Assembly (NCBI GenBank): GCA_944388695.1
Contig: CALXJT010000001.1
Coordinates: 4,570-68,569, forward strand
Reading direction: 5' to 3'
Source: an uncultured Clostridia bacterium
Lineage (GTDB): Bacteria; Bacillota; Clostridia; TANB77; CAG-508
DNA: 64,000 nucleotides
A program made the position numbers and the translations under genes. Positions 1 through 23,662 of this stretch are shown piece by piece (the stretch's first letter is position 1; the number at the start of each line of letters is the position of its first letter). The notes under the pieces are model-generated. The model did no database searches and had not been told where the DNA came from. It saw only the letters and a list, made by a program, of their open reading frames with translations.

Positions 1-690
1 ATTGCATCTGATGGTATATTGCCAATTGTTAAGAGTTCTGACCATGGAATGGATTTTTATATTCTTAAAAAGGATAATGTTGGACTTCGGATGGCAGTAA
101 GAATGAAAAATCAGTTATTTAGTGATGATGTAACTATTGCATTTTTTGAAAATAGGTATTCTATTCCTTATGATTCTAATCCGTATGAAAAACAAAATGT
201 AACTGAAAGAATCTTTGTCGATGAAATTACAGAATCTTTAGCAGAACTGGATAAAGCAATGGGAGAAGAAATGGATATGAAAGATTTAGAAACAATCCTT
301 TTCGGAGAGAGAATTGTTAAGAAACCAGTTGAGTTACCTAAAGCTTCGGCTTCAGATAAAGAATCGGTAAATAAGTCGGCAGAAAAACTTAATGATGAGT
401 CAGTAGGTATGCCAAGGTACAAATCATTTGGACAACCAGGTGACAAACCAGCAGGTATGCCAAAGACCAAATCATTTGGAGAACCAGATAGCAGACCAGT
501 GGGTATGCCGAAGTTTAAATCATTTGATGAACAACATAGCAAACCACATGATGTGCTAGAGCAGCAATCAATTGATGATTTTACCAAAGCCCCAAATAAG
601 ATAGTATTAAACCAAACTACAAGTTCAGTAAAAAATGGAGAAGTAGTAAAAAAATCTTCACATGAAGATAAAAATAACAGTTCGAAATAG
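1..690 (+). CDS. Hypothetical protein, probably 5'-partial at the window edge. C-terminal region has three tandem 16-aa GMP(R/K)xKSFG(Q/E)P repeats. First gene of the vWA/kinase operon.
   Basis: Open frame from nt 1 with no in-window stop. The track ORF 19..690 starts at TTG. Stop TAG is at 688-690. The 48-nt periodic repeat VGMPRYKSFGQPGDKPA/GMPKTKSFGEPDSRPV/GMPKFKSFDEQHSKP is visible in the translation. Confidence 0.5.
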   Translation: MASDGILPIVKSSDHGMDFYILKKDNVGLRMAVRMKNQLFSDDVTIAFFENRYSIPYDSNPYEKQNVTERIFVDEITESLAELDKAMGEEMDMKDLETILFGERIVKKPVELPKASASDKESVNKSAEKLNDESVGMPRYKSFGQPGDKPAGMPKTKSFGEPDSRPVGMPKFKSFDEQHSKPHDVLEQQSIDDFTKAPNKIVLNQTTSSVKNGEVVKKSSHEDKNNSSK

Positions 691-3021: not shown

Positions 3022-3040
3022 TTAAATGGAGGAAAAAATT

Positions 3041-3775
3041 ATGTCAAAAGAATTTGATTTTCTGTCACTTGCAAATGAGTATGATTTTTCGTCAGATAGT
3101 ATTAATGTGTTTTTGATGGTATTGGATAGTTCTGGATCGATGGAAGATGATACTTTTAATGTTCGGAAAGGACTTGAAGCTTACAAAAAAGATTTTGAGA
3201 ATTTTCATGAGGCAAATTCGATTGTTGTATCTGCATCAAGTTTTGATTCACATTATTATCCAAAACCATTTGTAAAGGTGAGAAAGATGTCAACTAGTTA
3301 TTCTACTGGAGGAAGAACAGCATTGTGTTATTCCATTGTGCAAGGTGCTGAACAACTCAAAACTTATATCGAAGAGGTATCTAGGAGAACAGGCGTTATT
3401 CCAAGAGCTACGTTTATCCTTTTCTCTGATGGTGAGCCTTGTGATGATCCTGTAGAACCAAGCAAAGCTAAAGAGGCAATTGAGGAATTGAATTATGCAG
3501 GAATTACGACTGTATTTATAGCATTTGGAGCAGCAATTTCTTCAGAATTTGGTAAGATTATGGGATTTCAGTCTACAAGGGATGTAAATGACCGTAATTC
3601 ATTAGTTGACTTCATGGTAGAAGAACTCTCAAAATCTTGTAAAGAGCAGTCACAAAGCATGAAAGCTCTCGGAGCAGATTTCTTTAGCCATGCAACTGAT
3701 AAAGAAAGTTCAGCAAATTACTCGAATACTACAAAACAGGCTCTTGAAGATGATGATTGGATTGATGAAATTTAA
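3041..3775 (+). CDS. von Willebrand factor A (vWA) domain protein, TerY-like, with canonical MIDAS.
   Basis: ATG at 3041 follows GGAGG; the track ORF starts at 3026. MIDAS motif FLMVLDSSGSMEDD, followed by typical vWA strands (RATFILFSDGEP, TTVFIAFGAA). Confidence 0.75.
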   Translation: MSKEFDFLSLANEYDFSSDSINVFLMVLDSSGSMEDDTFNVRKGLEAYKKDFENFHEANSIVVSASSFDSHYYPKPFVKVRKMSTSYSTGGRTALCYSIVQGAEQLKTYIEEVSRRTGVIPRATFILFSDGEPCDDPVEPSKAKEAIEELNYAGITTVFIAFGAAISSEFGKIMGFQSTRDVNDRNSLVDFMVEELSKSCKEQSQSMKALGADFFSHATDKESSANYSNTTKQALEDDDWIDEI

Positions 3776-3859
3776 TTGATTCATATTCAAGATTGTAACT
3801 AGAAATTTAACACCCTGGGGAACTGATAGTTCCCCAGGATATGGAAGAGGTATAATTAT

Positions 3860-6800
3860 ATGCTTAATAAATTATATTCATCACTTTATTATTATTGGGT
3901 AAAAAAACATTATAAATTAATGTTTTCTCACGATGGAGAAGAAATATATTATGCCAATAAAAAACTAGTTGTTATACAGGAAAACAGAATACTTGGAGAA
4001 AAAATTTATGATATTGTTTCTTCTTTAAGTGATTCTAATACAGTGCTAGAAATTAAAAACATGTCTTTTAGTTTTGTTAATTATTTAGCTGTGGATGGGG
4101 TTATTACTTGTTTTTCTATATCCGTTCCAGATGAGTTTGATGTGCAAGAATTTGCGATAATGGAAAAACTAGAAAAAGTAATTCTCTTTGTCAGCGAAAT
4201 GAATAAACACGGTTATTTTTTAGATGAATCAAAGTTTGAGTTTAAACAGAGTTATTCTATTTCAGAAATTCTTTCATTTCTTACTACTGATTCTAAAGCT
4301 GAAAGTAAGACACTTGGAATCTTGATTAGATATTGTCATTATTATTTATCTGGAAAAAATGATTTTGAAGAATTTTATTTTGAGCTTGACAGTCAAAGAT
4401 ATTTTGACATGCATGAAATGCCATATTCTATTGAGATTATACAGATGTGTTATAAATATTATTCGACAGGTGAAGTTCCAGAAGATATATATGAGGTTCT
4501 TACTTATAATTCAGGCAAACTTTATAAGTACGATTTATGTGTCAAGGATGCAGAATGTAAGAATTGGAATCCAGATGAAGAAAATGATGAATATGCGATT
4601 TATGGTAACATAAAGATATTCAAGAAGATGCCAGAGAATTTTAAAAAATTTATACTTTCTGATTATTATGATGGGAGTATATGTTTTCTATGTGATGATA
4701 CAGATAATTTAAGAGTTATTAATCTTGATGGTGAGGTTATTGGATATGAAACAAGTTTTGACTCTAGTCGTATGCCCATTTTAGATGTAGAAATCTTTCA
4801 CCAAAAAATGATATTTAAGTTTATAGAAAAACTGATATCTTTTGTATTAAGAACAAAGAAAATGAGAGATTTTGATAACAATTTATCTAAAGTGGAACTC
4901 GATAAAATTATTACTGTTTCAGGATTTCTTTATGATTTCAAGTTTAAATCTTTTGACAAGTTATTCTATTTCTTTGGAATGAGTGAAGATGAAATTTTAA
5001 ATCAGCTTGCAGAAATTTTTTGTAGAATGTATAAAAAATTTATTAATAAGCTCTATGGAAAAGTAAATGATAGAAATGAATTACTAGAAAAGCGTGAGAT
5101 TAGATATTTGAGTCCAATGCTTGCGAATGAGCTTGTAAAGTTCTATTTTGAGGAGGATACAAATTTTAAGCGAGTATTTGATGAATTGCAATTATTCAAT
5201 TCTAGTTATAGAGAATTTGATTATACTGCTTTATTGTTTTATGATGGGCGATTTGCATACAATCCATTTACAATTCCATTTCATTTTTACTATGAAGTAG
5301 AACAAAAATATGGAATAAAACTTGAAGCTCATATGAAGAAAGAGTTGCCAGATGGACGAAATATTGTGATGTTTTCTCATCCTAAATCAATCAAAGACTT
5401 TAAGAATAAGCATGTGCATATATGTGAAATGATAAATAGATTAATAGGAAATATTGAGAGTGAACATCTGAAGTTTGTAGAGGTTTCTGAAATTATCTAT
5501 TCCGAGGAATATGATGATAGTGGAGTTTATAGTTTTATAGGTTATATAACAACTCCTGTTAAAGGTGAGATACTGACTTTAGAGGACCAATTAATACTTA
5601 ACAATAAAGAGTTAATGTATGTGTTTGGATACTATTATGCTAATTTCTCTGAATATATTTTTCCTGAAGAGTATGTTCGGATGGATAGTGATTTTGTATT
5701 CTACATTGATGTGTTAGCTGATGATTTTGAATTGAAGCGCACTTATTGTTCTTCTAAAAGAGAATTATTGAAGAAAGAAATTAATATCCTTTTAGATAAT
5801 GAATATAATTCAAATGCGTTTGTTGGGCTAAATTTGGATTTATTTTCACTTCATAATTACTTTAAAGATAGTATCGGATTTCCAGGTATGTCTCTTTCAG
5901 AATACTTTATTGAACTTGCAGATTCTCTCAATCATTATTGCCTGAAACATGGTATTTACTATGCTGGTAAAGCTTGTCATATCTGTTCAGAAACAGTATA
6001 TTATTTGGCTCGTAAATCCATAAAGAAGGATATTTTAATCTTTGAGGATGATATTGCTAGACATTATGAAATAAGTCCTGACTATAACCTTAAATTTTAT
6101 AAACCAGAATCAGTTAATATGATTGATATGGAAGAAAGAGTGGATAAACTAATAAAAATAAGTTTAAGTCCTAATTATGACTTATTTGAATATGGACAGG
6201 ATTGTTTTATACCAGTAAAGAAAGCATATGATAACGATGAGAAGTTTGTTGGCTACTTATATAAACATGTGAGCTTTGCTGATGAATCAGATGACTTGTG
6301 TGTTGACTTAAAAGACCTAGAGAAAATGAAAAATTTACCTAGGTTAAAAGCTTTAATTAGACTCTTGAAACAAATTAAATCATTACTAGAAAAAGATATC
6401 TTTTTTGCTCAAAATCCTTATGGCACAGTTTTTTTAAATAGAAGTTGTAAAAAACAAGTACAAATATTAAATATTGAATTTATTGATACAGAAGGGAATA
6501 AATCTGATGTTATAAATTGGACTTGTGCATATGTATTTGATGTTATAAAATCAGATAAAACTCTTATGTTAGATAGTAAATTTAAACAACTTCTAGATGA
6601 TATTCAGGAGGATTCTGAAGGTGATATGAGTAATATTGATTCAATTCTTTTGAAGACACTTGAAGAAAAGGCTGAAAGGATGACAAAATACTGTGCTACA
6701 CATCAGTTATATTATGATAAAGAATATCTATTCTGTCCCAAATGTTCAGAAGAGGTTGATGTAAAAAATTTGAAGATTATGGAGATAAGCAAAAAAGACA

Positions 6801-8554
6801 TTACTTCTCGTAAAAAAATTGGTGACGGTGGTGAAGCTGATATTTATGAATATGGGAATGGTGATGTGGCAAAGGTATTTAAAGAAAACGGTAATATTAA
6901 TTACAGTTTGAAGAGCATGATTATAGCTCGGATTATGAAGAAAGCTGAAACATTAAAAAATACTGGTAATTCTGCTCAATATCAGTACATTATTCCAAAA
7001 GTAATCTTGGTAGATAATAATCAAATGTATGGTTATGTGATGAAAAGAGTCGGTGGATTTCCTTTATCTGTTTTAAAAGATAAGCAGTTTGTAAAAGAAC
7101 AGGGCTTTTCTAAAAGAGATGTTTTTGATATACTCATAACAGTAGGAAAAGGCATCGAAGGATTGCATAAGGAGAATATTTTTATTGGCGATTTAAATGG
7201 TAGAAATATCCTTTTTAACAAATCAAAAACAGTTTACTTTTTAGATTTTGATGGAATGGGAGTAGATGAGTTTTCGCCAGAATTTTGTACAGATACTTAT
7301 ATTGACCCAGTTTCTAAAAAGAAGAGTATGATTACAGAGAAAGATGATTGGTATTCATTTGCGGTTCAAGCTTTCTATTATTTGACATATACACATCCTT
7401 TTAATGGGATTTATATGGAAGATGGGAGAGCATTGGAGATTCCGGAAAAAATGGAAAAAAGAATTTCTCTTCTTGGTAATCATGGAATTGATATTCCTAA
7501 AATTGCGGAACCATGGGATTGGATGAGTGAGGAACTTAAAAATACCTTTTATTCTATTTTTGAAAAAGAACTTAGGGTTAGTATTGTTCCATATCTTATT
7601 AATCAATATAATTGTATATATAAAGGTGAAGGAGATGCTCAAGTATCTGATGAAAAATGGGTCAGAATTAATCCAAAGTTTATAACATTGAGTTTTAATC
7701 CTTTTAGTGTTGAAGATGAAACATATGCTATAAACTCAAACGTTGCACTTTGTATAGAGAAAAAGTATGCTATTGTTTTAACAAGTAATCACCAATATAT
7801 CCTTAAAGATTCATGCTTTTTTAATGAACCAGAATCAATTCAGGATGTAGTAATTACAGAAGATGAAAATTTTGCTTTTGTAATTTATTGGAGAATTTTG
7901 TTTATAATTGACTTGAAAAAAGATCATTGTATTCAATTTATACTTTTAAAAGGTACTAATAATGCAATTGTGAATGGAAATTCTATATTTTATGTAGATA
8001 TCCATAAAAACAAGCCTATTATCTCTCAAGTTTCTGTGAACAGTGGAGGTGAATTAGAAGAAAATCGGTTTAAATATACTGATAAATCACTGGCTCCGAA
8101 ATACTTTGGTGTAGCATTTAGTAGAAAATTTGTTATAGTTCAGCCATCTTCTAAGTATAAAGATGTTATATATTGTAACAGTGAGAAATTCTGCGATATT
8201 GATTGTAAGCATAGTAATACTAAATACAATGTTATTTACGATGATTTTAGTAAAACATGGCTTGTAATTAATGAAGAAGGATATGTTGTTATAATTAAAC
8301 AAGATGGCACCTTTGACAAGTTTAAGCTAAATGATGAAATCGAAGTATTAGTAAAGAATATTCGGTATGTAAAAGGAAATATTTATATCCCAAATGATGG
8401 ATGTTTGTGGATAATAAGTGTAAAAGACCAGTTTAAATGTAAGAAGATGGAATGTCATAAATTTATGACTTCCGCTTCTAGGATTTGTAAGGTGGACCGA
8501 AATGGTTTTACTGTAGTAACAGATGGAAAACTCTATGTTATTCGTAGAGGATAA
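3860..8554 (+). CDS. Giant 1,564-aa multidomain protein with two CxxC...CxxC Zn-ribbon-like motifs, a eukaryotic-type Ser/Thr protein kinase-like domain and a beta-rich C-terminal domain.
   Basis: RBS GGAAGAGG lies before ATG 3860. Kinase signatures are seen directly: KKIGDGGEADIYEY (G-loop), VAKVFK (beta3 Lys), HKENIFIGDLNGRNILF (catalytic loop with D...N), LDFDGMG (DFG-like), KDDWYSFAVQAFYY (subdomain IX DxWSxG-like). Cys pairs CLKHG...CHIC and CATHQ...CPKC. Confidence 0.7.
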   Translation: MLNKLYSSLYYYWVKKHYKLMFSHDGEEIYYANKKLVVIQENRILGEKIYDIVSSLSDSNTVLEIKNMSFSFVNYLAVDGVITCFSISVPDEFDVQEFAIMEKLEKVILFVSEMNKHGYFLDESKFEFKQSYSISEILSFLTTDSKAESKTLGILIRYCHYYLSGKNDFEEFYFELDSQRYFDMHEMPYSIEIIQMCYKYYSTGEVPEDIYEVLTYNSGKLYKYDLCVKDAECKNWNPDEENDEYAIYGNIKIFKKMPENFKKFILSDYYDGSICFLCDDTDNLRVINLDGEVIGYETSFDSSRMPILDVEIFHQKMIFKFIEKLISFVLRTKKMRDFDNNLSKVELDKIITVSGFLYDFKFKSFDKLFYFFGMSEDEILNQLAEIFCRMYKKFINKLYGKVNDRNELLEKREIRYLSPMLANELVKFYFEEDTNFKRVFDELQLFNSSYREFDYTALLFYDGRFAYNPFTIPFHFYYEVEQKYGIKLEAHMKKELPDGRNIVMFSHPKSIKDFKNKHVHICEMINRLIGNIESEHLKFVEVSEIIYSEEYDDSGVYSFIGYITTPVKGEILTLEDQLILNNKELMYVFGYYYANFSEYIFPEEYVRMDSDFVFYIDVLADDFELKRTYCSSKRELLKKEINILLDNEYNSNAFVGLNLDLFSLHNYFKDSIGFPGMSLSEYFIELADSLNHYCLKHGIYYAGKACHICSETVYYLARKSIKKDILIFEDDIARHYEISPDYNLKFYKPESVNMIDMEERVDKLIKISLSPNYDLFEYGQDCFIPVKKAYDNDEKFVGYLYKHVSFADESDDLCVDLKDLEKMKNLPRLKALIRLLKQIKSLLEKDIFFAQNPYGTVFLNRSCKKQVQILNIEFIDTEGNKSDVINWTCAYVFDVIKSDKTLMLDSKFKQLLDDIQEDSEGDMSNIDSILLKTLEEKAERMTKYCATHQLYYDKEYLFCPKCSEEVDVKNLKIMEISKKDITSRKKIGDGGEADIYEYGNGDVAKVFKENGNINYSLKSMIIARIMKKAETLKNTGNSAQYQYIIPKVILVDNNQMYGYVMKRVGGFPLSVLKDKQFVKEQGFSKRDVFDILITVGKGIEGLHKENIFIGDLNGRNILFNKSKTVYFLDFDGMGVDEFSPEFCTDTYIDPVSKKKSMITEKDDWYSFAVQAFYYLTYTHPFNGIYMEDGRALEIPEKMEKRISLLGNHGIDIPKIAEPWDWMSEELKNTFYSIFEKELRVSIVPYLINQYNCIYKGEGDAQVSDEKWVRINPKFITLSFNPFSVEDETYAINSNVALCIEKKYAIVLTSNHQYILKDSCFFNEPESIQDVVITEDENFAFVIYWRILFIIDLKKDHCIQFILLKGTNNAIVNGNSIFYVDIHKNKPIISQVSVNSGGELEENRFKYTDKSLAPKYFGVAFSRKFVIVQPSSKYKDVIYCNSEKFCDIDCKHSNTKYNVIYDDFSKTWLVINEEGYVVIIKQDGTFDKFKLNDEIEVLVKNIRYVKGNIYIPNDGCLWIISVKDQFKCKKMECHKFMTSASRICKVDRNGFTVVTDGKLYVIRRG

Positions 8555-8562
8555 AGATTATA

Positions 8563-8610
8563 GAGAATGCTCAAGAATATTAATATCTTCTTGAGCATTC
8601 TCTTAATTTT
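8563..8610 (+). terminator. Rho-independent terminator of the vWA/kinase operon.
   Basis: Perfect inverted repeat GAGAATGCTCAAGAA (8563-8577) / TTCTTGAGCATTCTC (8588-8602) followed by TTAATTTTTAAT. Confidence 0.8.
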
Positions 8611-9070: not shown

Positions 9071-10777
9071 ATGAAACAAAAAACAAAAGGTGTAGGACCT
9101 CGGATTGTAGCAATAATTTTAACGATTATTATAGCTCTTTTTTTAAATTGGCTACATTTACCACCATGGAACATTCGGTCAGTAAGTTTTTGGTGGTACT
9201 GGGTATTTGTATGTGTTGTTGCTCCAATGACTTTTTCAATTGTAGATACTATTGCAGGTTATGGTGCTACTACAATTATTACTAAAATTTTGAGAATTAT
9301 AGCTATTGCTATGGTAATAATTATAGTTATTCTAACTTTTGCATCATCAAAAATCTTTAATGCTGCTAGATATTCTAATCTAATTGATGTAGAAGAGGGT
9401 AATTTCCAAGAAGATATTCAGAGTATTTCAACGGTTGAAGAAGCCAAAAATTTTCCGCTTCTTGATGTTGAAACTGCACAAAAATTAGGAAATAGATCAT
9501 TGAGCCAAATAAAGAAGGTTTCTCAATTTGAAGTTAATGATGAATATAATCTTATTAGCTATAATGGAAAACAATATAGATTATCTCCATTAGAATATTC
9601 TTCTTTTGTTAAGGCTATGAATAATGAGAGTATACCTGGTTATGTGCTTGTTGATTCTGAAACTCAAGAAAGTCAATTAGTAGATTTAGAGAATGAAATC
9701 AAATATGCACCTAGTGATATTTTTTCACAAGACTTAAATAGACATTTGAGAAGTAAATATCCTAGTTATATATTTGACAAATTTCAATTTGATATTGATG
9801 ATTCAGGAGAACCTTATTATATTGCACCAGTATTAAAACCTACAATCGGACTCTTTGGAGGTCAAAAAGTAGAATCTTTTGTTATAGTAAATGCCAATTC
9901 AGGCGAATGTGAAGAATATTTACCTGAAGATTTACCAGAATGGGTAGACCATGCATATTCGTTAGATTATTTAATGAATTTAGCAGAAAATTATTACCAG
10001 TATAAAGATGGCTTTTTTAATTCTTTATTTTCAAAAACTAATGTCAAGAAGCTTTCATATAGTTATGAAGGTGAAAATGTAAATGAAGATGACCAAGAAG
10101 ATGAAAATAAATTTGTTGGTTATAATTCAATCTTAACAGAAGATGGTGTACAGTTTTTTACTTGTGTAGTTTCGGCTAGTAATGATGAATCAGCGCTAGG
10201 TTTTATTTTAGCAAACTCTAGAACTGGAAAAATAACTTATTATGAATGTGCAGGTGCTGAAGAAAGTACGGCTCAATTACAAGCAGAAAGCTTATACCAG
10301 AATTATGGTTATAAGTCTAGTTATCCATTAATGGTAAATGTTGATGGAGTGCCAACATATATCATATCATTGAAAGATAAGTCTAAAATAAATAAGGCTT
10401 ATGTTATGATTAATGTTGAAAATTACACTATATCAGCTTCTGGAGAAACATTGGAAGATGCTCTTATTGAATATAGAGAGAAGGTTTTTGGTGAAGAAGC
10501 GTTAACTCCAGATGATTTGACATCAGAAACACCAGAAGAAATAGAAGCTGAAATCTTTACTACTACTGGAACTATAACACAATTGTATCAGGCTACACAA
10601 GATGGTACGACTCAATTCTTCTTTATTTTAGATGGTGATGAAAATCTATATATTTCGCCAATTACTAATAATAGTAGGCAGGTGCAAATGTCAGTTGGAA
10701 GTAATGTTTCAATTGAATATTATAATTCACCTAATGAAGAATTAGTAGGTATTGTTTCAAAAATCAAAATCAATTAA
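9071..10777 (+). CDS. Hypothetical membrane protein with N-terminal TM helices and a large extracytoplasmic domain.
   Basis: RBS GGAGG before ATG 9071. Hydrophobic N-terminus (IVAIILTIIIALF..., WWYWVFVCVVAP, IAIAMVIIIVILTF), then a 450-aa soluble region with no motif I recognise. Confidence 0.6.
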   Translation: MKQKTKGVGPRIVAIILTIIIALFLNWLHLPPWNIRSVSFWWYWVFVCVVAPMTFSIVDTIAGYGATTIITKILRIIAIAMVIIIVILTFASSKIFNAARYSNLIDVEEGNFQEDIQSISTVEEAKNFPLLDVETAQKLGNRSLSQIKKVSQFEVNDEYNLISYNGKQYRLSPLEYSSFVKAMNNESIPGYVLVDSETQESQLVDLENEIKYAPSDIFSQDLNRHLRSKYPSYIFDKFQFDIDDSGEPYYIAPVLKPTIGLFGGQKVESFVIVNANSGECEEYLPEDLPEWVDHAYSLDYLMNLAENYYQYKDGFFNSLFSKTNVKKLSYSYEGENVNEDDQEDENKFVGYNSILTEDGVQFFTCVVSASNDESALGFILANSRTGKITYYECAGAEESTAQLQAESLYQNYGYKSSYPLMVNVDGVPTYIISLKDKSKINKAYVMINVENYTISASGETLEDALIEYREKVFGEEALTPDDLTSETPEEIEAEIFTTTGTITQLYQATQDGTTQFFFILDGDENLYISPITNNSRQVQMSVGSNVSIEYYNSPNEELVGIVSKIKIN

Positions 10778-10940
10778 AGCAAAAGCTCTGTGGTATTTTC
10801 CACAGAGCTTCTGCTTTATAATATTTTTTATATTAAATAATGTATGAATTGAATAAATATGTTATAATAGATTCAGAAGTTAAATAACTATGTAAAAATC
10901 ATACAAAAATTAATTAATGTTTTTGAAAGGAAGAATGATT

Positions 10941-11300
10941 ATGAGCTTGTTAGGAAATATTTTATGGTTTATCTTTGGAGGTTTTTTTAGTGGACTTTCT
11001 TGGATATTATCTGGAGTGATTTGGTGTATAACTATTGTTGGAATACCTTATGGAAAACAATGTTTTAAGTTTGCATCAATGTCATTTGCTCCATTTGGAA
11101 AAGAGATTGAATATGGTGGTGGAGTTCCATCATTACTCGCAAATGTGATATGGATTATCTTTTTTGGTATTCCAATGGCTTTGGAGAATTTGCTTTTTGC
11201 CTGTTTATGGTGCATAACTATAGTAGGAATACCATTTGGATTACAATTTTTCAAAATTGCTAAATTATCTTTAGCTCCATTTGGAGCAAGGATTGTTTGA
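10941..11300 (+). CDS. YccF-like inner membrane protein (DUF307), internally duplicated.
   Basis: Two repeated halves GNILWFIFGG...CITIVGIPYG...FAPFGKEI and ANVIWIIFFG...CITIVGIPFG...LAPFGARI. RBS AAAGGAAG is 7 nt before ATG 10941; the track ORF starts at 10917. Confidence 0.7.
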   Translation: MSLLGNILWFIFGGFFSGLSWILSGVIWCITIVGIPYGKQCFKFASMSFAPFGKEIEYGGGVPSLLANVIWIIFFGIPMALENLLFACLWCITIVGIPFGLQFFKIAKLSLAPFGARIV

Positions 11301-11418
11301 AACAAGTTAAATGGCAATTATAAATAAGAACATTAATTTAAGATTTGTGTGATTTAGAGAGGGATACAGTTGAACTATTACCTTAAAAGTGGACAGTAAA
11401 AAGAAAGAGAGGCTCTCT

Positions 11419-11460
11419 GGAAAGTATTGTAGTTATTTCTGCAATACTTTCTCTTTTTAA
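11419..11460 (+). terminator. Intrinsic terminator after the yccF-like gene.
   Basis: GGAAAGTATTGTAG / CTGCAATACTTTC stem followed by TCTTTTT. Confidence 0.55.
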
Positions 11461-11743
11461 GAAGAGATATTTATTTTATGAGTGATTTTGAATAGAAATA
11501 TTGATTTAAAATATAAAATTTAAAGTTTAAAAAGTATTAAAAATTTTTATATAAATTGTAGATTATTTGTATTTTTTATAGTATTATTTTTGTGATGAGT
11601 TTTATTTTGAAGAAAGGAGAAAATATAATAAGATATTTAGATAAGTCTATTAATCAAAGTAATATTATAGAATTTAAAATTATAGGATATATAATGAAAT
11701 TGAAAAATAAAATTAAAATATAACATAAAAGGAGAAGTTTGAT

Positions 11744-12442
11744 ATGAAGCTAGTTGTAAGAAATTTAAAGAAAAGTTTTGAGAAAAAAGAAGTATTAAAA
11801 GATATTAATTTTGAATTTGAAAAAGGTAAAATATACGGATTATTAGGAAGAAATGGGGCAGGGAAGACCACATTTTTTAATTGCTTAAATGAAGATATAG
11901 ATATAAATGAGGGAGAATTTTATATTGAAGATAATAATAATAAAAGAAAGATGGAAGCAGAAGATATAGGATATGTTTTATCAACACCAAATGTTCCAGA
12001 GTTTTTAACAGCAAGAGAATTTCTAAAATTTTTTATAGACATCAACCAAAAAAGAATTAAAGATTTGAAAACAATAGATGAATATTTTGATTTTATGAAA
12101 ATTGAAGAAGAAGATAGAGATAGATTATTAAAAGATTATTCACATGGTATGAAAAATAAAATGCAAATGTTAGTTAATATTATCGCAAATCCTAATGTAT
12201 TGCTTTTAGATGAACCATTAACTTCATTTGATGTAGTAGTTTCAGAAGAAATGAAACAAATGTTACGAGAAATAAAACAAAATCATATTATTATATTTTC
12301 AACTCATATTATGGAATTAGCATTGGATTTATGTGATGAAATAGTTATCTTAAATAAAGGCGTTCTAGAAGAAGTTGATAAAAACAATTTGAATAATGAA
12401 CAATTCAAAAATAAAATAATAGAAGCATTAAAGGAGGAATAG
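11744..12442 (+). CDS. ABC transporter ATP-binding protein.
   Basis: Walker A GLLGRNGAGKTT; Walker B LLLDEPLTSFD; H-loop FSTHIM. Confidence 0.8.
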   Translation: MKLVVRNLKKSFEKKEVLKDINFEFEKGKIYGLLGRNGAGKTTFFNCLNEDIDINEGEFYIEDNNNKRKMEAEDIGYVLSTPNVPEFLTAREFLKFFIDINQKRIKDLKTIDEYFDFMKIEEEDRDRLLKDYSHGMKNKMQMLVNIIANPNVLLLDEPLTSFDVVVSEEMKQMLREIKQNHIIIFSTHIMELALDLCDEIVILNKGVLEEVDKNNLNNEQFKNKIIEALKEE

Positions 12443-12446
12443 AAAG

Positions 12447-14024
12447 ATGATAGAAACTTTTATAACTTCCTTTAAATTACAAAATACATATAGAACAAAT
12501 AGTATTATTTATTCTTTAAAACAATTACTATTAATAAAAAGAATATTGCCAAATAGCTTATATAAAAATAGAGGGTTAAAAATATTTGCAAATATCATTA
12601 GTATTTTGTTGGAAATAATTAATATTTTTATAGGAAAAATTATATATATTCTAGCAATGATATTTGTGCCATTATCTTGGTATAATAGTAATGTGTCAGA
12701 TACATTCATACATTTATTTATGTTTCTAACACTTGCAGGAGGAGTGTTAAATACATATATGTTAAATCCAACCAAAGATAAATATTATGCAATCATTCTA
12801 ATGAATATAGATGAAAGGAAATATGGACTTTCTAATTATTATTATCAATTGATAAAATTAATCATTGGATTTCTACCATTTACAATACTTTTTGGAATGA
12901 TAGCAGGTGTTCCATTATGGATTCAAATAGTATTACCGTTTTTTGTGGTAGCAATAAAATTAATCGTAATGAATTATTGCATATATCATTTTAAGAAAAC
13001 AAATAAAGCATCAAATGAAAATATACCAACTAAATTTGTTTGGGGATTTGTAGCGGTTTGTTTGTTACTTGCTTATGGTTTGCCAGCAATTAATATTACA
13101 ATAAATCAAACTATTTTATTATTAGTATTTATCATTTCCATCATACTTGGAATTTACAGTTTAGTAAAAATTCATAACTTCAAAGATTATAGAAAGATGT
13201 ATAAACAAATATTAACTGAATCAAATGTATACATGCAAGAAAGAAATGCTGGTACACAAGCATTGAAGGATACTAGTTTAAAACAAATAGAGTTAGATAA
13301 AACTTATACAAGTAATAAATCAGGATTTGCATATTTTCATGATCTATTTGTAAAAAGACATAGAAAAATTTTGACAACAGCTGTAAAAAAACAGTCAGTT
13401 GTAATATTAGTAATATTTATTGCTATGATTATTGGAATAAGTGTAAATGATAATTTTAAAAGTAAAACAAATGAAATATTGATGGTTTATTTACCATACT
13501 TTGTATTTATAATGTATTGCATAAATAGAAGTTCATCAGTTACACAGGCAATGTTTATGAATTGTGACCATAGTATGCTAACATATAGAATATATAGAAC
13601 ACCAAAAGTTATTTTGGGAATATTTAAAGAAAGATTAAAAACACTAATAACAATTAATTTATTACCTGCAACACTAATAGGTTTAGGTTTAGCATTATTA
13701 TTATATTTATCTGGAGGAACAGATAATTCGTTAAATTATTTAATATTATTTGTATCAATAATTTCAATGAGTATATTCTTTTCAGTTCATTATTTGGTAA
13801 TGTATTATTTATTACAACCTTATAATGTAAGTACAGAAATGAAAAGTAGTACATATAAAGTGGTTCAAGGTTTAACTTATATAGTATGTTGGTATATGAT
13901 ACAAATTAGATTACCAATATTTTCTTTTGGTATAGCAACAATAGTTTTCTGTATAGCATATTGCTTAATTTCATTATTTTTGGCATATAAATATGCACCA
14001 AAAACTTTTAAGTTAAGAGTATAG
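12447..14024 (+). CDS. Polytopic membrane protein, putative ABC-2-type permease partner.
   Basis: 525 aa with more than 10 hydrophobic segments, starting 4 nt after the ABC ATPase stop. Confidence 0.6.
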   Translation: MIETFITSFKLQNTYRTNSIIYSLKQLLLIKRILPNSLYKNRGLKIFANIISILLEIINIFIGKIIYILAMIFVPLSWYNSNVSDTFIHLFMFLTLAGGVLNTYMLNPTKDKYYAIILMNIDERKYGLSNYYYQLIKLIIGFLPFTILFGMIAGVPLWIQIVLPFFVVAIKLIVMNYCIYHFKKTNKASNENIPTKFVWGFVAVCLLLAYGLPAINITINQTILLLVFIISIILGIYSLVKIHNFKDYRKMYKQILTESNVYMQERNAGTQALKDTSLKQIELDKTYTSNKSGFAYFHDLFVKRHRKILTTAVKKQSVVILVIFIAMIIGISVNDNFKSKTNEILMVYLPYFVFIMYCINRSSSVTQAMFMNCDHSMLTYRIYRTPKVILGIFKERLKTLITINLLPATLIGLGLALLLYLSGGTDNSLNYLILFVSIISMSIFFSVHYLVMYYLLQPYNVSTEMKSSTYKVVQGLTYIVCWYMIQIRLPIFSFGIATIVFCIAYCLISLFLAYKYAPKTFKLRV

Positions 14025-14137
14025 AAACTATTTGATAAGTGGATAGGCTTTATTGAAAGATTTGAGTTGAATTTGCAAAAATAATTATTCTTATTTATGA
14101 TATAAATTAGGAATAAGTAGTGGTTAAATTTTAAGGT

Positions 14138-14347
14138 TTGGAGGTAAATATGATTAAAGCAATCGTATATAAAAGTAGTACAGGGCATACAAAACAATAT
14201 GCTGAAATGTTAGGAGATTCTTTAAAAATTCCAGCTTATGATTTAAAAGAGGCAAGATTAAAATTGAAAAAGAATGATGAAATTGTATTTTTAGGGTGGG
14301 TATGTGCTACAAAAATACAGGGATTAAGTAAAATGAAAAATTTATAA
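14138..14347 (+). CDS. Flavodoxin-like N-terminal fragment (69 aa), probably a truncated remnant.
   Basis: MIKAIVYKSSTGHTKQYAEM resembles the flavodoxin phosphate-binding loop (T/SxTGxT), but the ORF ends after 69 aa. Downstream 14350-14890 holds further short unrelated ORF fragments. Confidence 0.35.
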   Translation: MEVNMIKAIVYKSSTGHTKQYAEMLGDSLKIPAYDLKEARLKLKKNDEIVFLGWVCATKIQGLSKMKNL

Positions 14348-14897
14348 TGTTGAAAGAACCATCTGTGATATCATTAGGGACAGAAATAAAATAGACTTGC
14401 AAGTTTTTAATACAGCACTAAACGAATACATGAAAAGAAAAGATAAAAATCTTATTCTATTATCAGAATATGCGAAGAATTTTAAAATAGAAAAAATATT
14501 AGCTCAATATATGGAGGTACTTGGATGAAAGGAAATGTAATGAGTTTAAAAGCAATAATCAATAATATTGCAAAAGAAATTAAATATGAAGATTTAATAG
14601 AGAGTTTGAAACAAGTTGGAGAAATATTGTAATTTATTGTTATAGAGTATTCACCAAAAGCAGATGATATGGCACAAAAAGTAGAAGAAAAGGCAAATGA
14701 AATGTTACAAGAAGGTTATGAGTTGATAACTATGTCAATTACTGGAACAGCAAAAGCTATTTTAGTATTTAAAAAAGTTTGAAGAAAGTTTTATATAAAT
14801 TACAAAACGAAAGATGGATAATTGAAATATACTGAACCAAAAAATTGGAATACTTAAAGTAAAGTTTTCTAAAGAATAAAGGAATAGGAGAAATTTT

Positions 14898-15995
14898 ATG
14901 GCAAATATATTTGATTATATACAATGGAGAGGAGATTTAAGCATATCAAAAGATGAATTTAATAAAATAGACAATCTAATTTTATCAAGATTCTCATATT
15001 TTCCATTTGATGAAATTATAAAAGAAAATGAGGTTGTGACAATTAGAGAATTAAGTGAAAGATTTAATAAAAAAGATAAAAGTAAAATGCCAATATTATG
15101 GGAAGATGATTTAAGTTTATTTCCTGTAATGGGAGCGTCTAAAAGATTTGGAGAGATGAAAGCAACTAGATATGTAAATAAAATAAATGTGGAACAAGAA
15201 AAACAATTTTCAGCTATAACTATCATAATGCCAGATGATACAATATATATATCATATAGAGGAACAGACGATACAGTAGTAGGATGGAAAGAAGATTTAA
15301 ATATGACATTTAAAATTCATATTCCATCACAAATAGATTCAGTAAAGTATTTAGAACAAATAGCAAAAGAGTATCCAAATAAAATAAGAGTTGGGGGACA
15401 TTCAAAAGGTGGAAATCTTGCAGTATATGCCACAACATTTGCAAATGAAAATATTAAAAGCAGAATAATTAATATTTATAATAATGATGGACCAGGTTTT
15501 AATGATGAAATAATTAAAACTAAAGAATATAAAGAGATGATAAAAAAAGTTGAAACATATATACCACAAGATTCTGTATTTGGAAGATTACTAAATTATG
15601 CAGATAAATATACAGTAGTAAAAAGCATACAAAAGGGTATTATGCAACATGATTTATATAGTTGGCAATTATTAGGTAAAGAATTTGTGTCTCTAAAAGA
15701 GGTTACTGATGGAAGCAAGTTTATAGATAAATCTATTAAATATTGGCTTGAACAGATAGATATGAATACAAGAGAGCAGGTAATAGATATTATATTTCAA
15801 GTTATAAATACAACAAAAGTAGATACACTATCAGAACTAAAAAATCATTGGTTTTCAAATGCCAAAATAATTTTAAACTCTTATAAACAGGTTGATAGTG
15901 AAAATAAAAAAATGGTTATGGAAACATTATCGGCTTTATTTAAAATAGTAAAGGATAATTTTTTGGAAGAACATCTTACTTTTAAGAGTTACTAG
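14898..15995 (+). CDS. Mbeg1-like (DUF2974) alpha/beta-hydrolase, lipase-like protein.
   Basis: GxSxG nucleophile elbow VGGHSKGGNLAVYA. N-terminal DYIQWRGDLSISKDEFNKIDNLILSRFSY is typical of this family. Confidence 0.65.
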   Translation: MANIFDYIQWRGDLSISKDEFNKIDNLILSRFSYFPFDEIIKENEVVTIRELSERFNKKDKSKMPILWEDDLSLFPVMGASKRFGEMKATRYVNKINVEQEKQFSAITIIMPDDTIYISYRGTDDTVVGWKEDLNMTFKIHIPSQIDSVKYLEQIAKEYPNKIRVGGHSKGGNLAVYATTFANENIKSRIINIYNNDGPGFNDEIIKTKEYKEMIKKVETYIPQDSVFGRLLNYADKYTVVKSIQKGIMQHDLYSWQLLGKEFVSLKEVTDGSKFIDKSIKYWLEQIDMNTREQVIDIIFQVINTTKVDTLSELKNHWFSNAKIILNSYKQVDSENKKMVMETLSALFKIVKDNFLEEHLTFKSY

Positions 15996-16180
15996 AAATA
16001 GTAACTCTAATTTCTTTTGTGAAAAATTCATTTACAAATCTTTCTTCAAAAAAGTTTTTGAAGAAGTTTTTTGTTTTTTAGAAACATTTATCGTTATAAA
16101 AAATAATATTTTTACTTATCTTACAAAAATGTAATTTTAAAATTTAAAAAATATGATATAATTAACCTGGAGGTCATATA

Positions 16181-16852
16181 ATGCAAAAAATTTTAATAGT
16201 TGAAGATGATAAAAAAATAAGAAAAGAGTTAGAAACTTTTTTAAATAAGAATGGATTTATAGCAAAAAGTTTAGAAAATTTCAATAATACAATACAAGAT
16301 ATATTAAAAGAAAATGCAGATTTAGTATTATTAGATATTAATTTACCATATAATGATGGAGAATTTGTGTGTAAAGAAGTACGAAAAACATCTGATGTAC
16401 CAATTATAATGGTAACCAGTAGAGATAATGAAATAGACGAATTAATGAGTTTATATGGTGGAGCAGACCAGTATGTAACAAAACCATATAATATACAAAT
16501 TTTACTTGCTAAAATAAATGGACTATTAAGAAGAAATAAAATCTCTGGAACGAATTTTGAAAAAATTGATTGTAATGGATTTGTTCTAAATATTGCAGAA
16601 AGAGTTATAGAAGGAAATAATAAAAAAATAGAATTAACTAAAAATGAGTATAACATTTTATATTATTTAAGTATAAACAAAGGGAAAGTAGTGTCAAGAG
16701 ATGAGATAATGGATTACTTATGGGAAAGCGAAGAATTTATTGATGATAATACATTAAGTGTAAATATTAAGAGGTTAAGGACAAAACTTGAAGAAATTGG
16801 ATTTGCTGATAAAATTGAAACTAGGAGAGGACAAGGGTATTTATTGAAATGA
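16181..16852 (+). CDS. OmpR-family response regulator, BceR-like.
   Basis: Receiver domain (ILIVEDD, LDINLP, phospho-acceptor D) followed by a winged-helix output domain (LTKNEYNILYYL...RGQGYLL). Overlaps the downstream kinase gene by 4 nt. Confidence 0.85.
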   Translation: MQKILIVEDDKKIRKELETFLNKNGFIAKSLENFNNTIQDILKENADLVLLDINLPYNDGEFVCKEVRKTSDVPIIMVTSRDNEIDELMSLYGGADQYVTKPYNIQILLAKINGLLRRNKISGTNFEKIDCNGFVLNIAERVIEGNNKKIELTKNEYNILYYLSINKGKVVSRDEIMDYLWESEEFIDDNTLSVNIKRLRTKLEEIGFADKIETRRGQGYLLK

Positions 16853-17868
16853 AATTTAGAGATTTTATAAAAGAAAAATTGATATTAATTTTAGGAATTA
16901 TACTAGCATTAATTAGTGTAGAAATATTATTACTTGTTTACAATATTAGTATATTAATAAGAATATATGTTTTTATTATAGTGATTTTTATGATGGTTTT
17001 AGCAATTTTAATTGAGTATAAAAGGAAAAAGGATTTTTATAATCAATTAATGAAGAATATGGATGATCTAAAAGAAAAATATTTAATTTCAGAAATAATA
17101 AAAACACCGAATTTTATTGAAGGAAAGATTTTAAAAGAGATTTTACAAGATACTGGTAAATCTATGCTAGAAAATGTGAATTATTATAAAAATATACAAG
17201 AAGATTATAAAGAATATATAGAATTATGGATTCATGAAGTAAAAATACCTATTGCAGCTAGTAAGTTAATTATTGAGAATAATAAAAACGAGGTAACTAA
17301 AAGTATTGATGAAGAATTAGATAAAGTAGAAAATTATACAGAACAAGCTTTATATTATGCTAGAAGTAATGCAGTAGAAAAGGATTATATTATAAATAAA
17401 GCAAATCTGAAAGAAATTGTAAATAATGCCATATTAAAGAATAAGACAACTTTACGAAATAAGAAAGTAACATTAGAACTTAAAGATTTAAAGCCAGAAG
17501 AAGTTTATACAGATAGTAAGTGGGCAATATTTATAATAAATCAAATCATACAAAATGCAATAAAATACTCTAAAAATGACGATAGAAAAATAGAGATTTT
17601 ATCAAAAGAAAAAAATGATAAGGTTATTTTATACATAAAAGATAATGGAATAGGAATAAAAAAAGGAGAAATTACAAGAGTATTTGAAAGAGGGTTTACA
17701 GGCGAAAATGGAAGAATTATAGGTCAAAAATCAACAGGTATAGGATTATATTTATGTAAGAAATTATGTGATAAATTAGGATTAGGAATAGAATTAAATT
17801 CTGAAAAAGATAAGGGAACTGAAGTAAGAATAATTTTTCCAAAAAGTAGTTATATAAATTTAAAATAG
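16849..17868 (+). CDS. Sensor histidine kinase, BceS-like intramembrane-sensing type.
   Basis: Two N-terminal TM helices with minimal loop, H-box ELWIHEVKIPIAAS, and ATPase N/G boxes (IINQIIQNAIKYS, DNGIGI, GIGLYLCKKL). Confidence 0.8.
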   Translation: MKFRDFIKEKLILILGIILALISVEILLLVYNISILIRIYVFIIVIFMMVLAILIEYKRKKDFYNQLMKNMDDLKEKYLISEIIKTPNFIEGKILKEILQDTGKSMLENVNYYKNIQEDYKEYIELWIHEVKIPIAASKLIIENNKNEVTKSIDEELDKVENYTEQALYYARSNAVEKDYIINKANLKEIVNNAILKNKTTLRNKKVTLELKDLKPEEVYTDSKWAIFIINQIIQNAIKYSKNDDRKIEILSKEKNDKVILYIKDNGIGIKKGEITRVFERGFTGENGRIIGQKSTGIGLYLCKKLCDKLGLGIELNSEKDKGTEVRIIFPKSSYINLK

Positions 17869-17892
17869 CTCTGAAATATGGGCTATTTTTTA
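17862..17892 (+). terminator. Weak intrinsic terminator after the histidine kinase gene.
   Basis: AAAATAGC / GCTATTTT stem with a 12-nt loop followed by a T-run. Confidence 0.35.
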
Positions 17893-17989
17893 TCTTACAG
17901 AAATGTAAGTCAAATGTAAGATAAAAAAATGGCAAGTGAGTATTGGATGCTTTATAATATAGTTAGAATACAGGAAAGGAGATTTTATA

Positions 17990-20846: not shown

Positions 20847-20914
20847 GATATATGTCTAAAATTATAGATTTTACTGGAAACATAAAAATGATAGTGGAAT
20901 AGGAGGAGTTTTAA

Positions 20915-21268: not shown

Positions 21269-21550
21269 TTGTGAAGATAGAAATGTAAAAAGAGATTAAC
21301 TGCAGATTGTGACAGTTAGCATGAAAATATCCCCTTATGTTAAAAATACTCTATATAATTATATAGAGTATTTTTTGTATAAAAAATTTTTTGAGTTATT
21401 TCCACTATAAAAAAATTTGGTTTTATGATATTCTTTTGTAAAGAAGTTTGGATTTTATTATAGTAAAGGATTTGAATTTTATTGATAATAAAAGTTGTTT
21501 ATGATATTATTATGTAATAAAAAAAGATTTAATAAAGATGGGGGAGTTTA

Positions 21551-23641: not shown

Positions 23642-23662
23642 TTTCAAAATTGAAACAAATCT

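Follow-up and report, generated by a model that had tools for sequence, protein, structure and literature searches.

The question raised by this locus is what a protein of 1,564 residues bearing the motifs of a eukaryotic-type kinase is, and what the rest of so large a polypeptide might be for. It is encoded by a single ORF, judged to be real, at 3860..8554 (+) of the window (the whole 64,000-nucleotide stretch of uncultured Clostridia DNA analysed here). The protein is the kinase of a bacterial vWA-phosphatase-kinase signalling cassette of known kind; what sets it apart is a single apparently active kinase domain that comes after one clear dead kinase-like domain and probably two to three more, and ahead of a propeller. 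The proposed order of its parts (Table 1) is D1, D2, D3 (degenerate kinase fold), a CHCC Zn ribbon, the pseudokinase D4, a second CHCC Zn ribbon, the kinase D5 and the propeller D6. Taken jointly, this identity and architecture are held with high confidence.

Table 1. Features of the kinase gene and its operon (coordinates in the window)
Feature	Coordinates	Strand	Description
PP2C gene, 3' end	1..690	+	Start upstream of window; frame 1 open from base 1; homology to cluster C1 (22 loci)
C2	690..1487	+	265 aa; disordered Ser/Thr/Pro/Lys-rich N-terminus and conserved alpha/beta domain of ~170 aa; kept in 22 loci
C3	1495..3021	+	508-aa cassette-specific protein; kept in 22 loci
TerY-like vWA protein	3026..3775	+	Pfam VWA 27.1 bits (cut-off 23.8)
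Intercistronic GC-rich hairpin, vWA-kinase gap	3814..3838	+	-20.6 kcal/mol, z -4.7
D1 (aa 1-222)	3860..4525	+	Alpha/beta N-terminal domain
D2 (aa 223-450)	4526..5209	+	Probable degenerate kinase-fold domain (pseudokinase)
D3 (aa 451-676)	5210..5887	+	Probable second degenerate kinase-fold domain; shortened C-lobe, then disordered linker
Zn ribbon 1	5927..5995	+	C694-x2-H697-x8-C706-x2-C709; four ligands invariant 38/38; homologous to Zn ribbon 2
D4 (aa 713-940)	5996..6679	+	Predicted pseudokinase paralogue of D5
Zn ribbon 2	6680..6754	+	C945-x2-H948-x10-C959-x2-C962; ligands invariant 38/38
D5 (aa 966-1255)	6755..7624	+	Apparently active non-RD YegI/TerY-P-type Ser/Thr protein kinase domain
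D6 (aa about 1270-1564)	7667..8551	+	Seven-bladed WD40-like beta-propeller
Intrinsic-terminator-like hairpin, U-rich tail, operon end	8556..8608	+	-25.8 kcal/mol, z -7.1

The kinase strings of the original prediction are all present and in the order given there: IGDGGEADIY (residues 987-996), VAKVFK (1003-1008), IGDLNGRNILF (1109-1119), LDFDGMG (1128-1134) and DDWYSFAV (1162-1169). Residues 1001-1228 score 37.6 bits against Pfam Pkinase and, since this exceeds the curated cut-off (31.7), the run of motifs is more than a chance resemblance. The best PDB profile match of D5 is the RSK2 kinase (E 2e-8), in an alignment that spans the catalytic loop, DFG, the APE-like motif and subdomain IX. Among the 38 orthologue sequences that underlie the conservation counts for this protein, G990, G991, E992, K1005, D1111, N1113, N1116 and D1131 are kept without exception, position 1129 holds D in 36 and E in two, and ePK-specific features are also conserved: T1144 and D1149-P1150 (APE-like), D1163-W1164 (subdomain IX) and R1239 (subdomain XI). 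A catalytically competent core had been predicted, with conservation in orthologues named as the test of it; the invariance of the catalytic residues favours the kinase reading, and to judge from them D5 is apparently active.

The motifs of D5 are not orthodox. Its G-loop has GGE in place of GxGxxG, and only IGD is left of the HRD motif, which makes it a non-RD kinase; Asn stands where the catalytic-loop Lys would be, and the 38 sequences show no invariant alphaC Glu (E1030 is present in 24). AF2 is also unsure of the kinase C-lobe, which lies at pLDDT below 50 (residues 1132-1242) in a model of residues 681-1564 with pTM 0.43. These departures would suit a protein that is a non-catalytic scaffold throughout, with D5 also a pseudokinase that binds nucleotide and transfers no phosphate, and with the PP2C serving the substrates of other kinases. 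We consider this very improbable. Activity is known for kinases of Bud32 and RIO type that have similar G-loops and catalytic loops. The catalytic Asp and Asn, the beta3 Lys and both DFDG acidic residues do not vary among sequences otherwise only 55% identical in D5, and it is exactly these catalytic positions that have decayed in the paralogous D4. E. coli YegI shares the GGE, VGD and D.D variants, and it autophosphorylates (10.1101/819920).

Judged by sequence, residues 691-940 are a duplicate of the Zn-ribbon-plus-kinase unit that has lost its catalytic Asp. Alignment by hhalign of residues 677-940 (Zn ribbon 1 and D4) with 941-1255 (Zn ribbon 2 and D5) extends over ~200 columns, the Zn ribbon included, with probability 96.5% and E 8e-10. 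D4 keeps K745, has N852 in place of the catalytic Asp and E/D873 at the metal-binding position, and its G-loop glycines are gone. The Zn motifs had been read as CxxC-(14-17)-CxxC; they are in fact CxxH-x8/10-CxxC (CHCC type), and all eight ligands are invariant in the 38 sequences. Both had been said to precede the kinase; only the second abuts the active domain, and the first lies 250 residues upstream, ahead of the pseudokinase copy. The internal duplication had been overlooked, as had the N-terminal region's kinase-fold character and the operon partners TelA and PP2C.

The ~930 N-terminal residues were originally said to be without a recognizable motif. For library searches that holds (Pfam and the PDB sequence profile are both empty, and the N-terminal profile found no kinase by sequence, the PDB profile search included), but profile-profile comparison and structure prediction find kinase-fold content. 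By hhalign D3 scores 28.4 with D5 (shuffled 15.3 +/- 2.8) and 24.4 with D4 (13.2 +/- 2.2); the scores of D2 and D3 far exceed their shuffled and reversed controls, and those of the propeller, the negative control, do not. K252 of D2 aligns with the beta3 lysine, and D2 has no catalytic-loop motif; the linker that ends D3 has pLDDT <50 at residues 661-675. Residues 223-676 probably hold two degenerate kinase-like domains. D1 is confidently modelled (AF2 pLDDT about 80-93) as three strands, a long helix, three strands and a helical bundle; it scores 26.4 with D4 (shuffled 14.0 +/- 3.2) and gives no hhalign signal with D5, so that a kinase-like origin is possible, with marginal support. The N-terminal 690 residues might instead be unrelated alpha/beta domains, their kinase-like matches reflecting a generic strand-helix-strand arrangement; we think this improbable. 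Relatives of the N-terminal region were found only among proteins of the same architecture, and the genome matches are all from uncultured gut Clostridia; the N-terminal domains evolve fastest, at 27-34% mean pairwise identity against 55% for D5.

The kinase gene is the last and largest of six in a conserved operon, in the order TelA, PP2C phosphatase, vWA-like protein (C2), 500-aa helical protein (C3), MIDAS vWA protein and kinase; six-gene synteny is seen in 17-22 of 27 genome loci. The window edge cuts the operon within the PP2C gene, with TelA and most of the PP2C gene outside. Both were identified by Pfam in relatives' loci (full-length PP2C relatives match PP2C_2 at 28.9-33.7 bits; cut-off 24), and a contig encoding a helical protein 99% identical to the window's has a 389-aa PP2C with TelA ahead of it. 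The C-terminal tail of the window's PP2C has three GMPxxKSF repeats (nt 409-525). C2 finds nothing in Pfam, PADLOC, PHROG or PDB searches; its sole signal comes from hhalign, which matches it to the vWA protein weakly and with consistent topology (E 0.027), and it may be a vWA domain without its MIDAS site. C3 has 152 homologues, all of about 500 aa and without Pfam domains, and its N-terminal part has only coiled-coil-type matches (coiled-coil noise alone in the PDB profile search). In the vWA protein the MIDAS (DxSxS, T, D) is intact and conserved in a 20-sequence alignment; its C-terminal tail is Ser-rich, acidic and highly conserved in the 20 sequences (...KEQSQS.K.LG..FFS...YS.TT.Q.LEDD.WIDEI), and the family profile matches E. 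coli YegL at E 6e-7 (an E for a single-sequence database). Past the hairpin that separates this gene from the next come the ribosome-binding site, GGAAGAGG, and the ATG (3860); most related loci have a stem of similar size, differing in sequence, at the equivalent position.

A kinase beside vWA proteins was originally thought unusual. The vWA gene does lie directly upstream, but this adjacency is no oddity, because vWA, PP2C and Ser/Thr kinase with Zn ribbon make up the described TerY-P triad, of which it is a hallmark (Anantharaman, Iyer & Aravind 2012, as summarised in PMC11090510); only size and domain count are out of the ordinary. The cassette is an expanded triad of TerY-P type, a class that includes E. 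coli YegL-PphC-YegI.

The best explanation, which we favour with fair confidence, is that the protein serves as kinase subunit in an expanded cassette of TerY-P type that acts as a phospho-switch. The kinase protein has no predicted membrane helix and none of the six cassette proteins has a consistent hydrophobic helix (none in the L005 set, one borderline segment in the window's C2). The switch is likely cytoplasmic, with the propeller and pseudokinase array controlling the single active kinase, a mechanism that we infer. Pseudokinases have a regulatory role in pseudokinase-kinase tandems such as JAK JH2-JH1 and the plant tandem kinase proteins. By analogy, the propeller and dead kinase domains would form a ligand- or partner-binding scaffold and regulate D5 allosterically; D5 would phosphorylate its own Ser/Thr residues or those of operon partners, with the vWA protein's conserved Ser-rich tail as the most obvious candidate substrate; PP2C would reset the switch; and the MIDAS vWA protein and TelA would turn the state of phosphorylation into a response at the membrane or close to it. 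The hairpin ahead of the kinase gene probably holds the giant protein sub-stoichiometric. The roles of TelA, C2, C3, the substrate and the signal we infer from context alone, and the mechanistic chain as a whole is tentative.

TerY-P-like modules are reported to act against phage as systems of their own (Gao et al. 2020, as cited in PMC11090510), and the cassette could be a defence system of that kind, of the abortive-infection type, in which the dead kinases and propeller would be integrated decoys or sensors for phage proteins and firing of the kinase would lead to growth arrest or membrane damage via TelA and the vWA proteins. The best PADLOC matches of D5 are indeed defence kinases (PD-T4-6 at E 1e-10, MkoA, mad6), and the fast evolution of the N-terminal domains is what a conflict surface would be expected to show. 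The genomic setting speaks against it. The cassette is flanked by housekeeping genes (secA, prfB, RNase J, folD), at a locus common to several species, with no mobile-element or other recognised defence genes alongside. Its divergence tracks that of SecA: across six genomes with the secA flank, mean identity is 78% for SecA and 42-69% for the cassette proteins. The cassette is chromosomal and looks to have been passed down vertically within a clade of uncultured gut Clostridia of low GC content. PADLOC finds nothing for either the vWA or the PP2C proteins, PHROGs has none for the cassette except a weak one for TelA, matches in the phage and plasmid collections cover the kinase domain only (five records in all), and the cassette has no nuclease or other obvious effector. 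We think a defence role unlikely and prefer the phospho-switch.

As in the TerY-P triad, all three component types occur in one operon, with an intact MIDAS and a Zn-ribboned kinase, and the nearest relatives of D5 found outside the family are themselves kinases of vWA-PP2C triads (an ENA contig, a Photobacterium plasmid and E. coli YegI). The Clostridial kinase far exceeds in size the 328-648 aa of the triad kinases seen here and has extra dead kinase-fold domains and a C-terminal propeller; its two Zn ribbons precede kinase copies, whereas in TerY-P triads the ribbon follows the kinase; and its operon adds TelA, a second vWA-like gene and the 500-aa helical protein. YegL-PphC-YegI is the biochemically studied triad (10.1101/819920, 10.1101/303594), with the yegL-pphC-yegI operon and YegI autophosphorylation sites described, and YegI is a 648-aa integral membrane protein with a single kinase domain (10.1101/819920). 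The Clostridial kinase and YegI share the GGE G-loop, VAK, [IV]GD[LV]N..N, D.D and a C..H..CP.C Zn motif, which in YegI (C..H..CPWC) sits after the kinase domain. Unlike YegI, the Clostridial protein lacks a predicted TM helix; it also has five or six further domains, and identity is only 22% (BLASTP with D5, E 2e-6 for that single comparison). The antiphage system of Gao et al. 2020 has the same three enzyme classes and a kinase fused to an OB-fold; here a propeller replaces the OB-fold, the context is housekeeping rather than a defence island, and PADLOC is blank for the vWA and PP2C proteins. In the actinobacterial system of Kaur et al. 2020 (PMC7159879) an active kinase is likewise fused to a Zn ribbon plus a domain rich in beta-strands, with PP2C and stand-alone vWA genes alongside; that system is linked to GAP1-N2 GTPases, of which there is none here, and its description has neither a pseudokinase array nor TelA. 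The Clostridial protein has no specific homology to JAK JH2-JH1, the plant tandem kinase proteins or EssB/YukC, and it differs from them all in that a single bacterial polypeptide carries as many as four dead copies.

The giant kinase is encoded by a single uninterrupted open reading frame, the last gene of a six-gene operon, and all the kinase strings quoted in the original prediction are found in it, in the order given there. Its case as an enzyme rests on the fifth domain, D5. Pfam Pkinase (PF00069) scores 37.6 bits on residues 1001-1228 against a curated cut-off of 31.7, and a PDB profile search with the C-terminal 884 residues matches solved eukaryotic kinases, with the N-terminal kinase of RSK2 at the top (E 2e-8). 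The RSK2 alignment spans the catalytic loop, the DFG region, the APE-like motif and subdomain IX, and lines up the catalytic residues of D5 with the HRDLKPEN and DFG of RSK2. The original prediction had proposed that an active kinase be doubted if these residues were not conserved in orthologues. They are kept across an alignment of 38 non-identical sequences: G990, G991, E992, K1005, D1111, N1113, N1116 and D1131 are invariant in 38/38, and D1129 is retained in 36 and replaced by E in 2. That test therefore favours a functional kinase. Invariant in the same alignment are T1144, D1149-P1150 (APE-like), D1163-W1164 (subdomain IX) and R1239 (subdomain XI) of the substrate-binding lobe, over which AF2 confidence is low. 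The mean pairwise identity of D5, 55%, is the highest in the protein (27-39% in the other globular domains).

The motifs of D5 are not those of a textbook kinase. The canonical GxGxxG is absent, the G-loop being x-G-G-E-[SA]; the HRD triplet and the catalytic-loop Lys are also absent from D5, whose catalytic loop reads I-G-D-L-N-G-x-N, with Asn for Lys. HRD being reduced to IGD, D5 is a non-RD kinase. No invariant alphaC Glu is found among the 38 orthologues, the alphaC region having no invariant acidic residue (E1030 is present in 24/38) and an invariant K1018. In these two motifs, G-loop and catalytic loop, D5 is similar to the Bud32 and RIO kinases; the NCBIfam Bud32 model has a sub-threshold match in the kinase. 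Judged by its residues, D5 is apparently a competent Ser/Thr kinase domain. That the protein is fully non-catalytic is unlikely: the catalytic residues of D5 are invariant, unlike those of the decayed domain D4 that precedes it.

The relation between D4 and D5 emerges from splitting the family alignment into six segments that were compared profile against profile. Segment 677-940 (Zn ribbon 1 and D4) matches segment 941-1255 (Zn ribbon 2 and D5) with a probability of 96.5% and E 8e-10 over ~200 columns. K745, at the position of the beta3 Lys, and an acidic residue at 873 are retained in D4. Because it has lost the G-loop glycines and has N852 (N in 37 sequences, D in 1) at the position of the catalytic Asp, D1111 of D5, D4 is a pseudokinase paralogue. 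The original prediction had also placed two Zn motifs in the protein. Two do exist, but the pattern stated for them, CxxC-(14-17)-CxxC, does not hold: both are CHCC, C-x2-H-x8/10-C-x2-C, and all 8/8 ligands are invariant in the 38-sequence alignment.

The kinase-fold series appears to extend further toward the N-terminus, with diminishing resemblance. D2 has profile scores of 37.1 against D4 and 28.6 against D5, and D3 of 24.4 and 28.4, respectively; D1 scores 26.4 against D4 and gives no signal against D5. Column-shuffled controls score 13-15 +/- 2-3, reversed profiles 11-18 and the propeller, as negative control, 17-21. Kinase landmarks coincide in the D2 and D3 alignments: K252, for example, is paired with the beta3 lysine, and the hinge is matched by a GY motif. 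A PDB sequence-profile search with the N-terminal 700 residues found nothing. By these profiles D2 and D3 are pseudokinase-like, and the kinase kinship of D1 is marginal; an origin outside the kinases is possible for D1 and less likely for D2 and D3.

The C-terminal domain, D6, consists of seven blades of four strands each and is structurally similar to known propellers (WD40-like); WD40 sequence repeats were not detected, the Pfam scan of the giant kinase yielding no WD40 family. We are highly confident of the identity of the protein jointly with its architecture, which reads, in order: D1, D2 and D3 (pseudokinase-like), a Zn ribbon, the D4 pseudokinase, a Zn ribbon, the apparently active kinase D5 and the seven-bladed propeller (see Table). 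Homologues with the full architecture, which the original prediction had suggested looking for, exist as 15 full-length relatives of 34-97% identity in a word-indexed search of 5.8 billion proteins. The family is rare: when the GTDB species were scanned, each represented by a single genome, 27 loci came up, all of them in uncultured Clostridia from animal guts. The hosts inhabit rabbits, mice, sheep and other animals, and so the system marks an under-studied lineage. Searching 1.84 billion representative proteins with an N-terminal profile (700 residues) gave 89 matches, all of the same architecture (~1,300-1,690 aa) or fragments, with no differently built relative of the N-terminal region among them; the domain array is therefore confined to the giant kinase family.

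Table. Features of the kinase cassette and its surroundings (nt, position in the window; aa, residue of the giant kinase)
Feature	Position	Size or pattern	Remarks
C5, TelA		~410 aa	Pfam PF05816, 83-96 bits (relatives)
C1, PP2C phosphatase, 3' end	nt 1-690		PF13672, 28.9-33.7 bits vs cut-off 24 (full-length relatives)
PP2C C-terminal tail	nt 409-525	three tandem GMPxxKSF repeats	
C2		~260 aa	
C3		~500 aa	
C4		~240 aa	vWA protein
Intergenic hairpin	nt 3814-3838	11-bp, -20.6 kcal/mol, z -4.7	GC-rich
Giant kinase	nt 3860-8554 (+)	1,564 aa	
D1	aa 1-222		marginal kinase kinship
D2	aa 223-450		pseudokinase-like
D3	aa 451-676		pseudokinase-like
Zn ribbon 1	aa 694-709	C694-x2-H697-x8-C706-x2-C709	before D4
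D4	aa 713-940		pseudokinase
Zn ribbon 2	aa 945-962	C945-x2-H948-x10-C959-x2-C962	before D5
D5	aa 966-1255		apparently competent kinase
D6	aa ~1270-1564	seven blades	propeller
Terminator-like hairpin	nt 8556-8608	-25.8 kcal/mol	U-rich tail
Accessory genes	nt 9071-23700	~15 kb	
Bce-like module	nt 16181-20846		
prfB (release factor 2)	nt 23721-24849		short ORF from ATG 23721, then +1 frame to 24849
prfB frameshift site	nt 23793-23799	CTT TGA C	programmed +1
Two Fic/DOC-family genes	nt 34581-36940		adjoining
Strand-switch region	nt ~37900-39000	~1.1 kb	very AT-rich, non-coding

ORFs were called in all the loci and then clustered into cassette families, and the order of the genes directly upstream of the kinase proves to be fixed: C5 (TelA), C1 (PP2C), C2, C3, C4 (the vWA protein), kinase. 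Frame 1 is open from the first base of the window, so that the window starts inside the PP2C gene; a contig whose C3 protein is 99% identical to the window's has TelA (400 aa) and a 389-aa PP2C ahead of the same genes. The intergenic gaps in the cassette are 0, 7, 4 and 84 nt, the last separating the vWA stop from the kinase start. The vWA protein of the window scores 27.1 bits with Pfam VWA (cut-off 23.8); its MIDAS is complete, with DxSxS, T and D conserved in 20 sequences, and its C-terminal tail is Ser-rich, acidic and strikingly conserved. The hhalign match of C2 to vWA is weakly suggestive, so C2 is not called a vWA domain. C3 has no relation to TelA, C2 or vWA by hhalign, and when C2 and C3 were searched against the PDB as sequence profiles, there was no match beyond coiled-coil noise. 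The repeats in the PP2C tail of the window are not general: the tails of three relatives (loci L001, L002 and L012) are of low complexity and different, that of L012 clearly repetitive, and most relatives are tail-less. No consistent hydrophobic helix is found in any of the six cassette proteins: the set from locus L005 has none, and the C2 protein of the window has one borderline segment (score 1.7, threshold 1.6). A membrane-anchored receptor kinase like YegI of E. coli was rejected because no hydrophobic helix is predicted.

Two hairpins bracket the kinase gene. The one lying between the vWA stop and the kinase start is matched at the same intergenic position in most related loci (L001-L027) by stems of similar size and unlike sequence, and may be an intra-operon attenuator or an RNA-stability element. 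The other follows directly on the kinase stop and was overlooked by a consensus terminator scan because its loop exceeds 8 nt. Rfam and tRNA scans found nothing in the window.

The flanks of the cassette vary among loci and are housekeeping genes, secA upstream and prfB or RNase J downstream. In six genomes with a common secA flank the mean identity of SecA is 78% and that of the cassette proteins 42-69%. Flanks and identities together fit vertical inheritance rather than a mobile island. Searches of a phage/plasmid collection and of PHROGs lent no support to a phage or plasmid origin. The two plasmid matches are a Photobacterium VWA-PP2C-kinase operon and an unannotated record.

In several relatives prfB adjoins the kinase; in the window accessory genes lie between them, encoding a membrane protein, YccF, ABC transporters and a Mbeg1-like protein and including a Bce-like module (response regulator, histidine kinase, ABC ATPase and FtsX permease). 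The prfB gene itself has the classic frameshift site. Farther on are the Fic/DOC-family genes, one fused to a RhuM-like region and the other SoFic-like, and then the strand-switch region, where GC skew and gene orientation flip. The replication terminus probably lies here; a search for a dif site of the B. subtilis type, allowing 3 mismatches, came up empty.

An antiphage role of the cassette is plausible by analogy with the antiphage TerY-P systems described in PMC11090510, and PADLOC finds the kinase domain similar to the PD-T4-6, MkoA and mad6 kinases. Against it, the context of the cassette is housekeeping and syntenic, mobile or defence neighbours are absent from it, and phage or plasmid relatives are nearly absent. 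The vWA and PP2C proteins have no PADLOC match at E <= 1. Identity with the experimentally validated antiphage TerY-P variant was rejected on that account and for the propeller, which is not an OB-fold.

Pseudokinase domains beside an active kinase usually regulate it or offer a docking surface, as in JAK JH2-JH1 and the plant tandem kinases, and propellers and MIDAS vWA domains bind peptides or proteins. It is from such known roles of the component families that a scheme of input, gating and output can be drawn. Kinase and PP2C would form a reversible Ser/Thr switch. Input would be received by the propeller and the array of dead domains, which would act as the gate of D5. The target of phosphorylation by D5 would be either D5 itself or a partner from the operon, and the obvious candidate substrate is the Ser-rich tail conserved in the vWA protein. 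PP2C would reset the system, the vWA proteins and TelA would deliver its output near the membrane, and the intergenic hairpin may cut read-through, keeping the giant protein scarce. The whole chain is tentative, and we rather doubt that all of it will stand.

A considerably bolder conjecture, which we consider improbable, sees in the giant kinase the bacterial equivalent of tandem-kinase receptors for immunity or stress: three to four decayed kinase-fold domains and the propeller would serve as baits for a phage or host effector or an envelope-stress ligand, freeing the non-RD kinase to phosphorylate the vWA tail and elicit a TelA-dependent membrane response. If true, TerY-P systems would have a signalling logic not known in them before, and the five-fold kinase-domain array would be the first to be described in a bacterial polypeptide. 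TerY-P triads are widespread and sit in tellurite-resistance, CoCoNuT/McrBC and stand-alone antiphage loci; the Clostridial variant is an extreme of their architecture, with graded decayed copies before the live kinase and a propeller after it. Should the decayed domains regulate D5 or act as its baits, the cassette would provide a compact, cytoplasmic and genetically self-contained model of bacterial pseudokinase-kinase regulation and would link the poorly understood TelA to Ser/Thr phosphorylation. Should the rival explanations hold, it would still be a lineage-specific representative of an established class, now correctly annotated.

The original prediction thought it unusual for so large a kinase to be encoded beside vWA proteins. 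The adjacency itself is not unusual: a vWA protein beside the kinase is a known trait of the TerY-P triad, defined (PMC11090510, PMC4978471) as vWA, PP2C and a Ser/Thr kinase with a Zn ribbon, and yegL-pphC-yegI of E. coli is an operon of this type, whose YegI autophosphorylates (10.1101/819920). Kaur et al. (PMC7159879) likewise note kinases in which a Zn ribbon and a beta-rich domain are fused to the catalytic domain and which have PP2C and vWA genes as neighbours. The cassette has the components of the class, MIDAS vWA, PP2C and Zn-ribbon Ser/Thr kinase, in one operon. In the E. coli triad PphC reportedly reverses the phosphorylation of YegI, according to a companion preprint. In a single BLASTP comparison the giant kinase and YegI are 22% identical across 250 residues (E 2e-6), and YegI has the same GGE, non-HRD and Asn-for-Lys motif variants as D5. 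A word-indexed search of 5.8 billion proteins with the kinase domain returned mainly fragments of its own family and a sole outsider, P0232 (E 1.6e-8), whose gene precedes those for a vWA protein and a PP2C. These likenesses, together with the Photobacterium operon among the plasmid matches of the kinase domain, suggest that D5 groups with the kinases of other vWA-PP2C triads. P0232 belongs to a canonical kinase-vWA-PP2C triad in an ENA metagenome (locus L029, 569-2173); its unassigned N-terminal domain of ~230 aa illustrates the variability of accessory modules in triad kinases.

PADLOC, NCBIfam and PHROGs add to this only generic kinase-domain matches and a weak TelA match for the kinase and its neighbours, and of the ter operon terZABCDE the scanned genes include no TerB, TerC or TerD, only TelA (in relatives). 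Triad kinases are described with a C-terminal Zn ribbon (PMC11090510), whereas here one precedes D4 and one D5; in a tandem array, a ribbon that leads one kinase copy is indistinguishable from one that trails the copy before it. The kinase of the antiphage TerY-P system of Gao 2020 has an OB-fold where this one has a propeller. The class, TerY-P triad kinase, and the vWA adjacency are thus known. What is new is the five-fold kinase-fold array with one apparently live copy, the duplication of the CHCC Zn ribbon, the propeller that replaces the usual C-terminal module, and an operon in which TelA, a second vWA-like protein and a family-specific 500-aa protein are constant partners.
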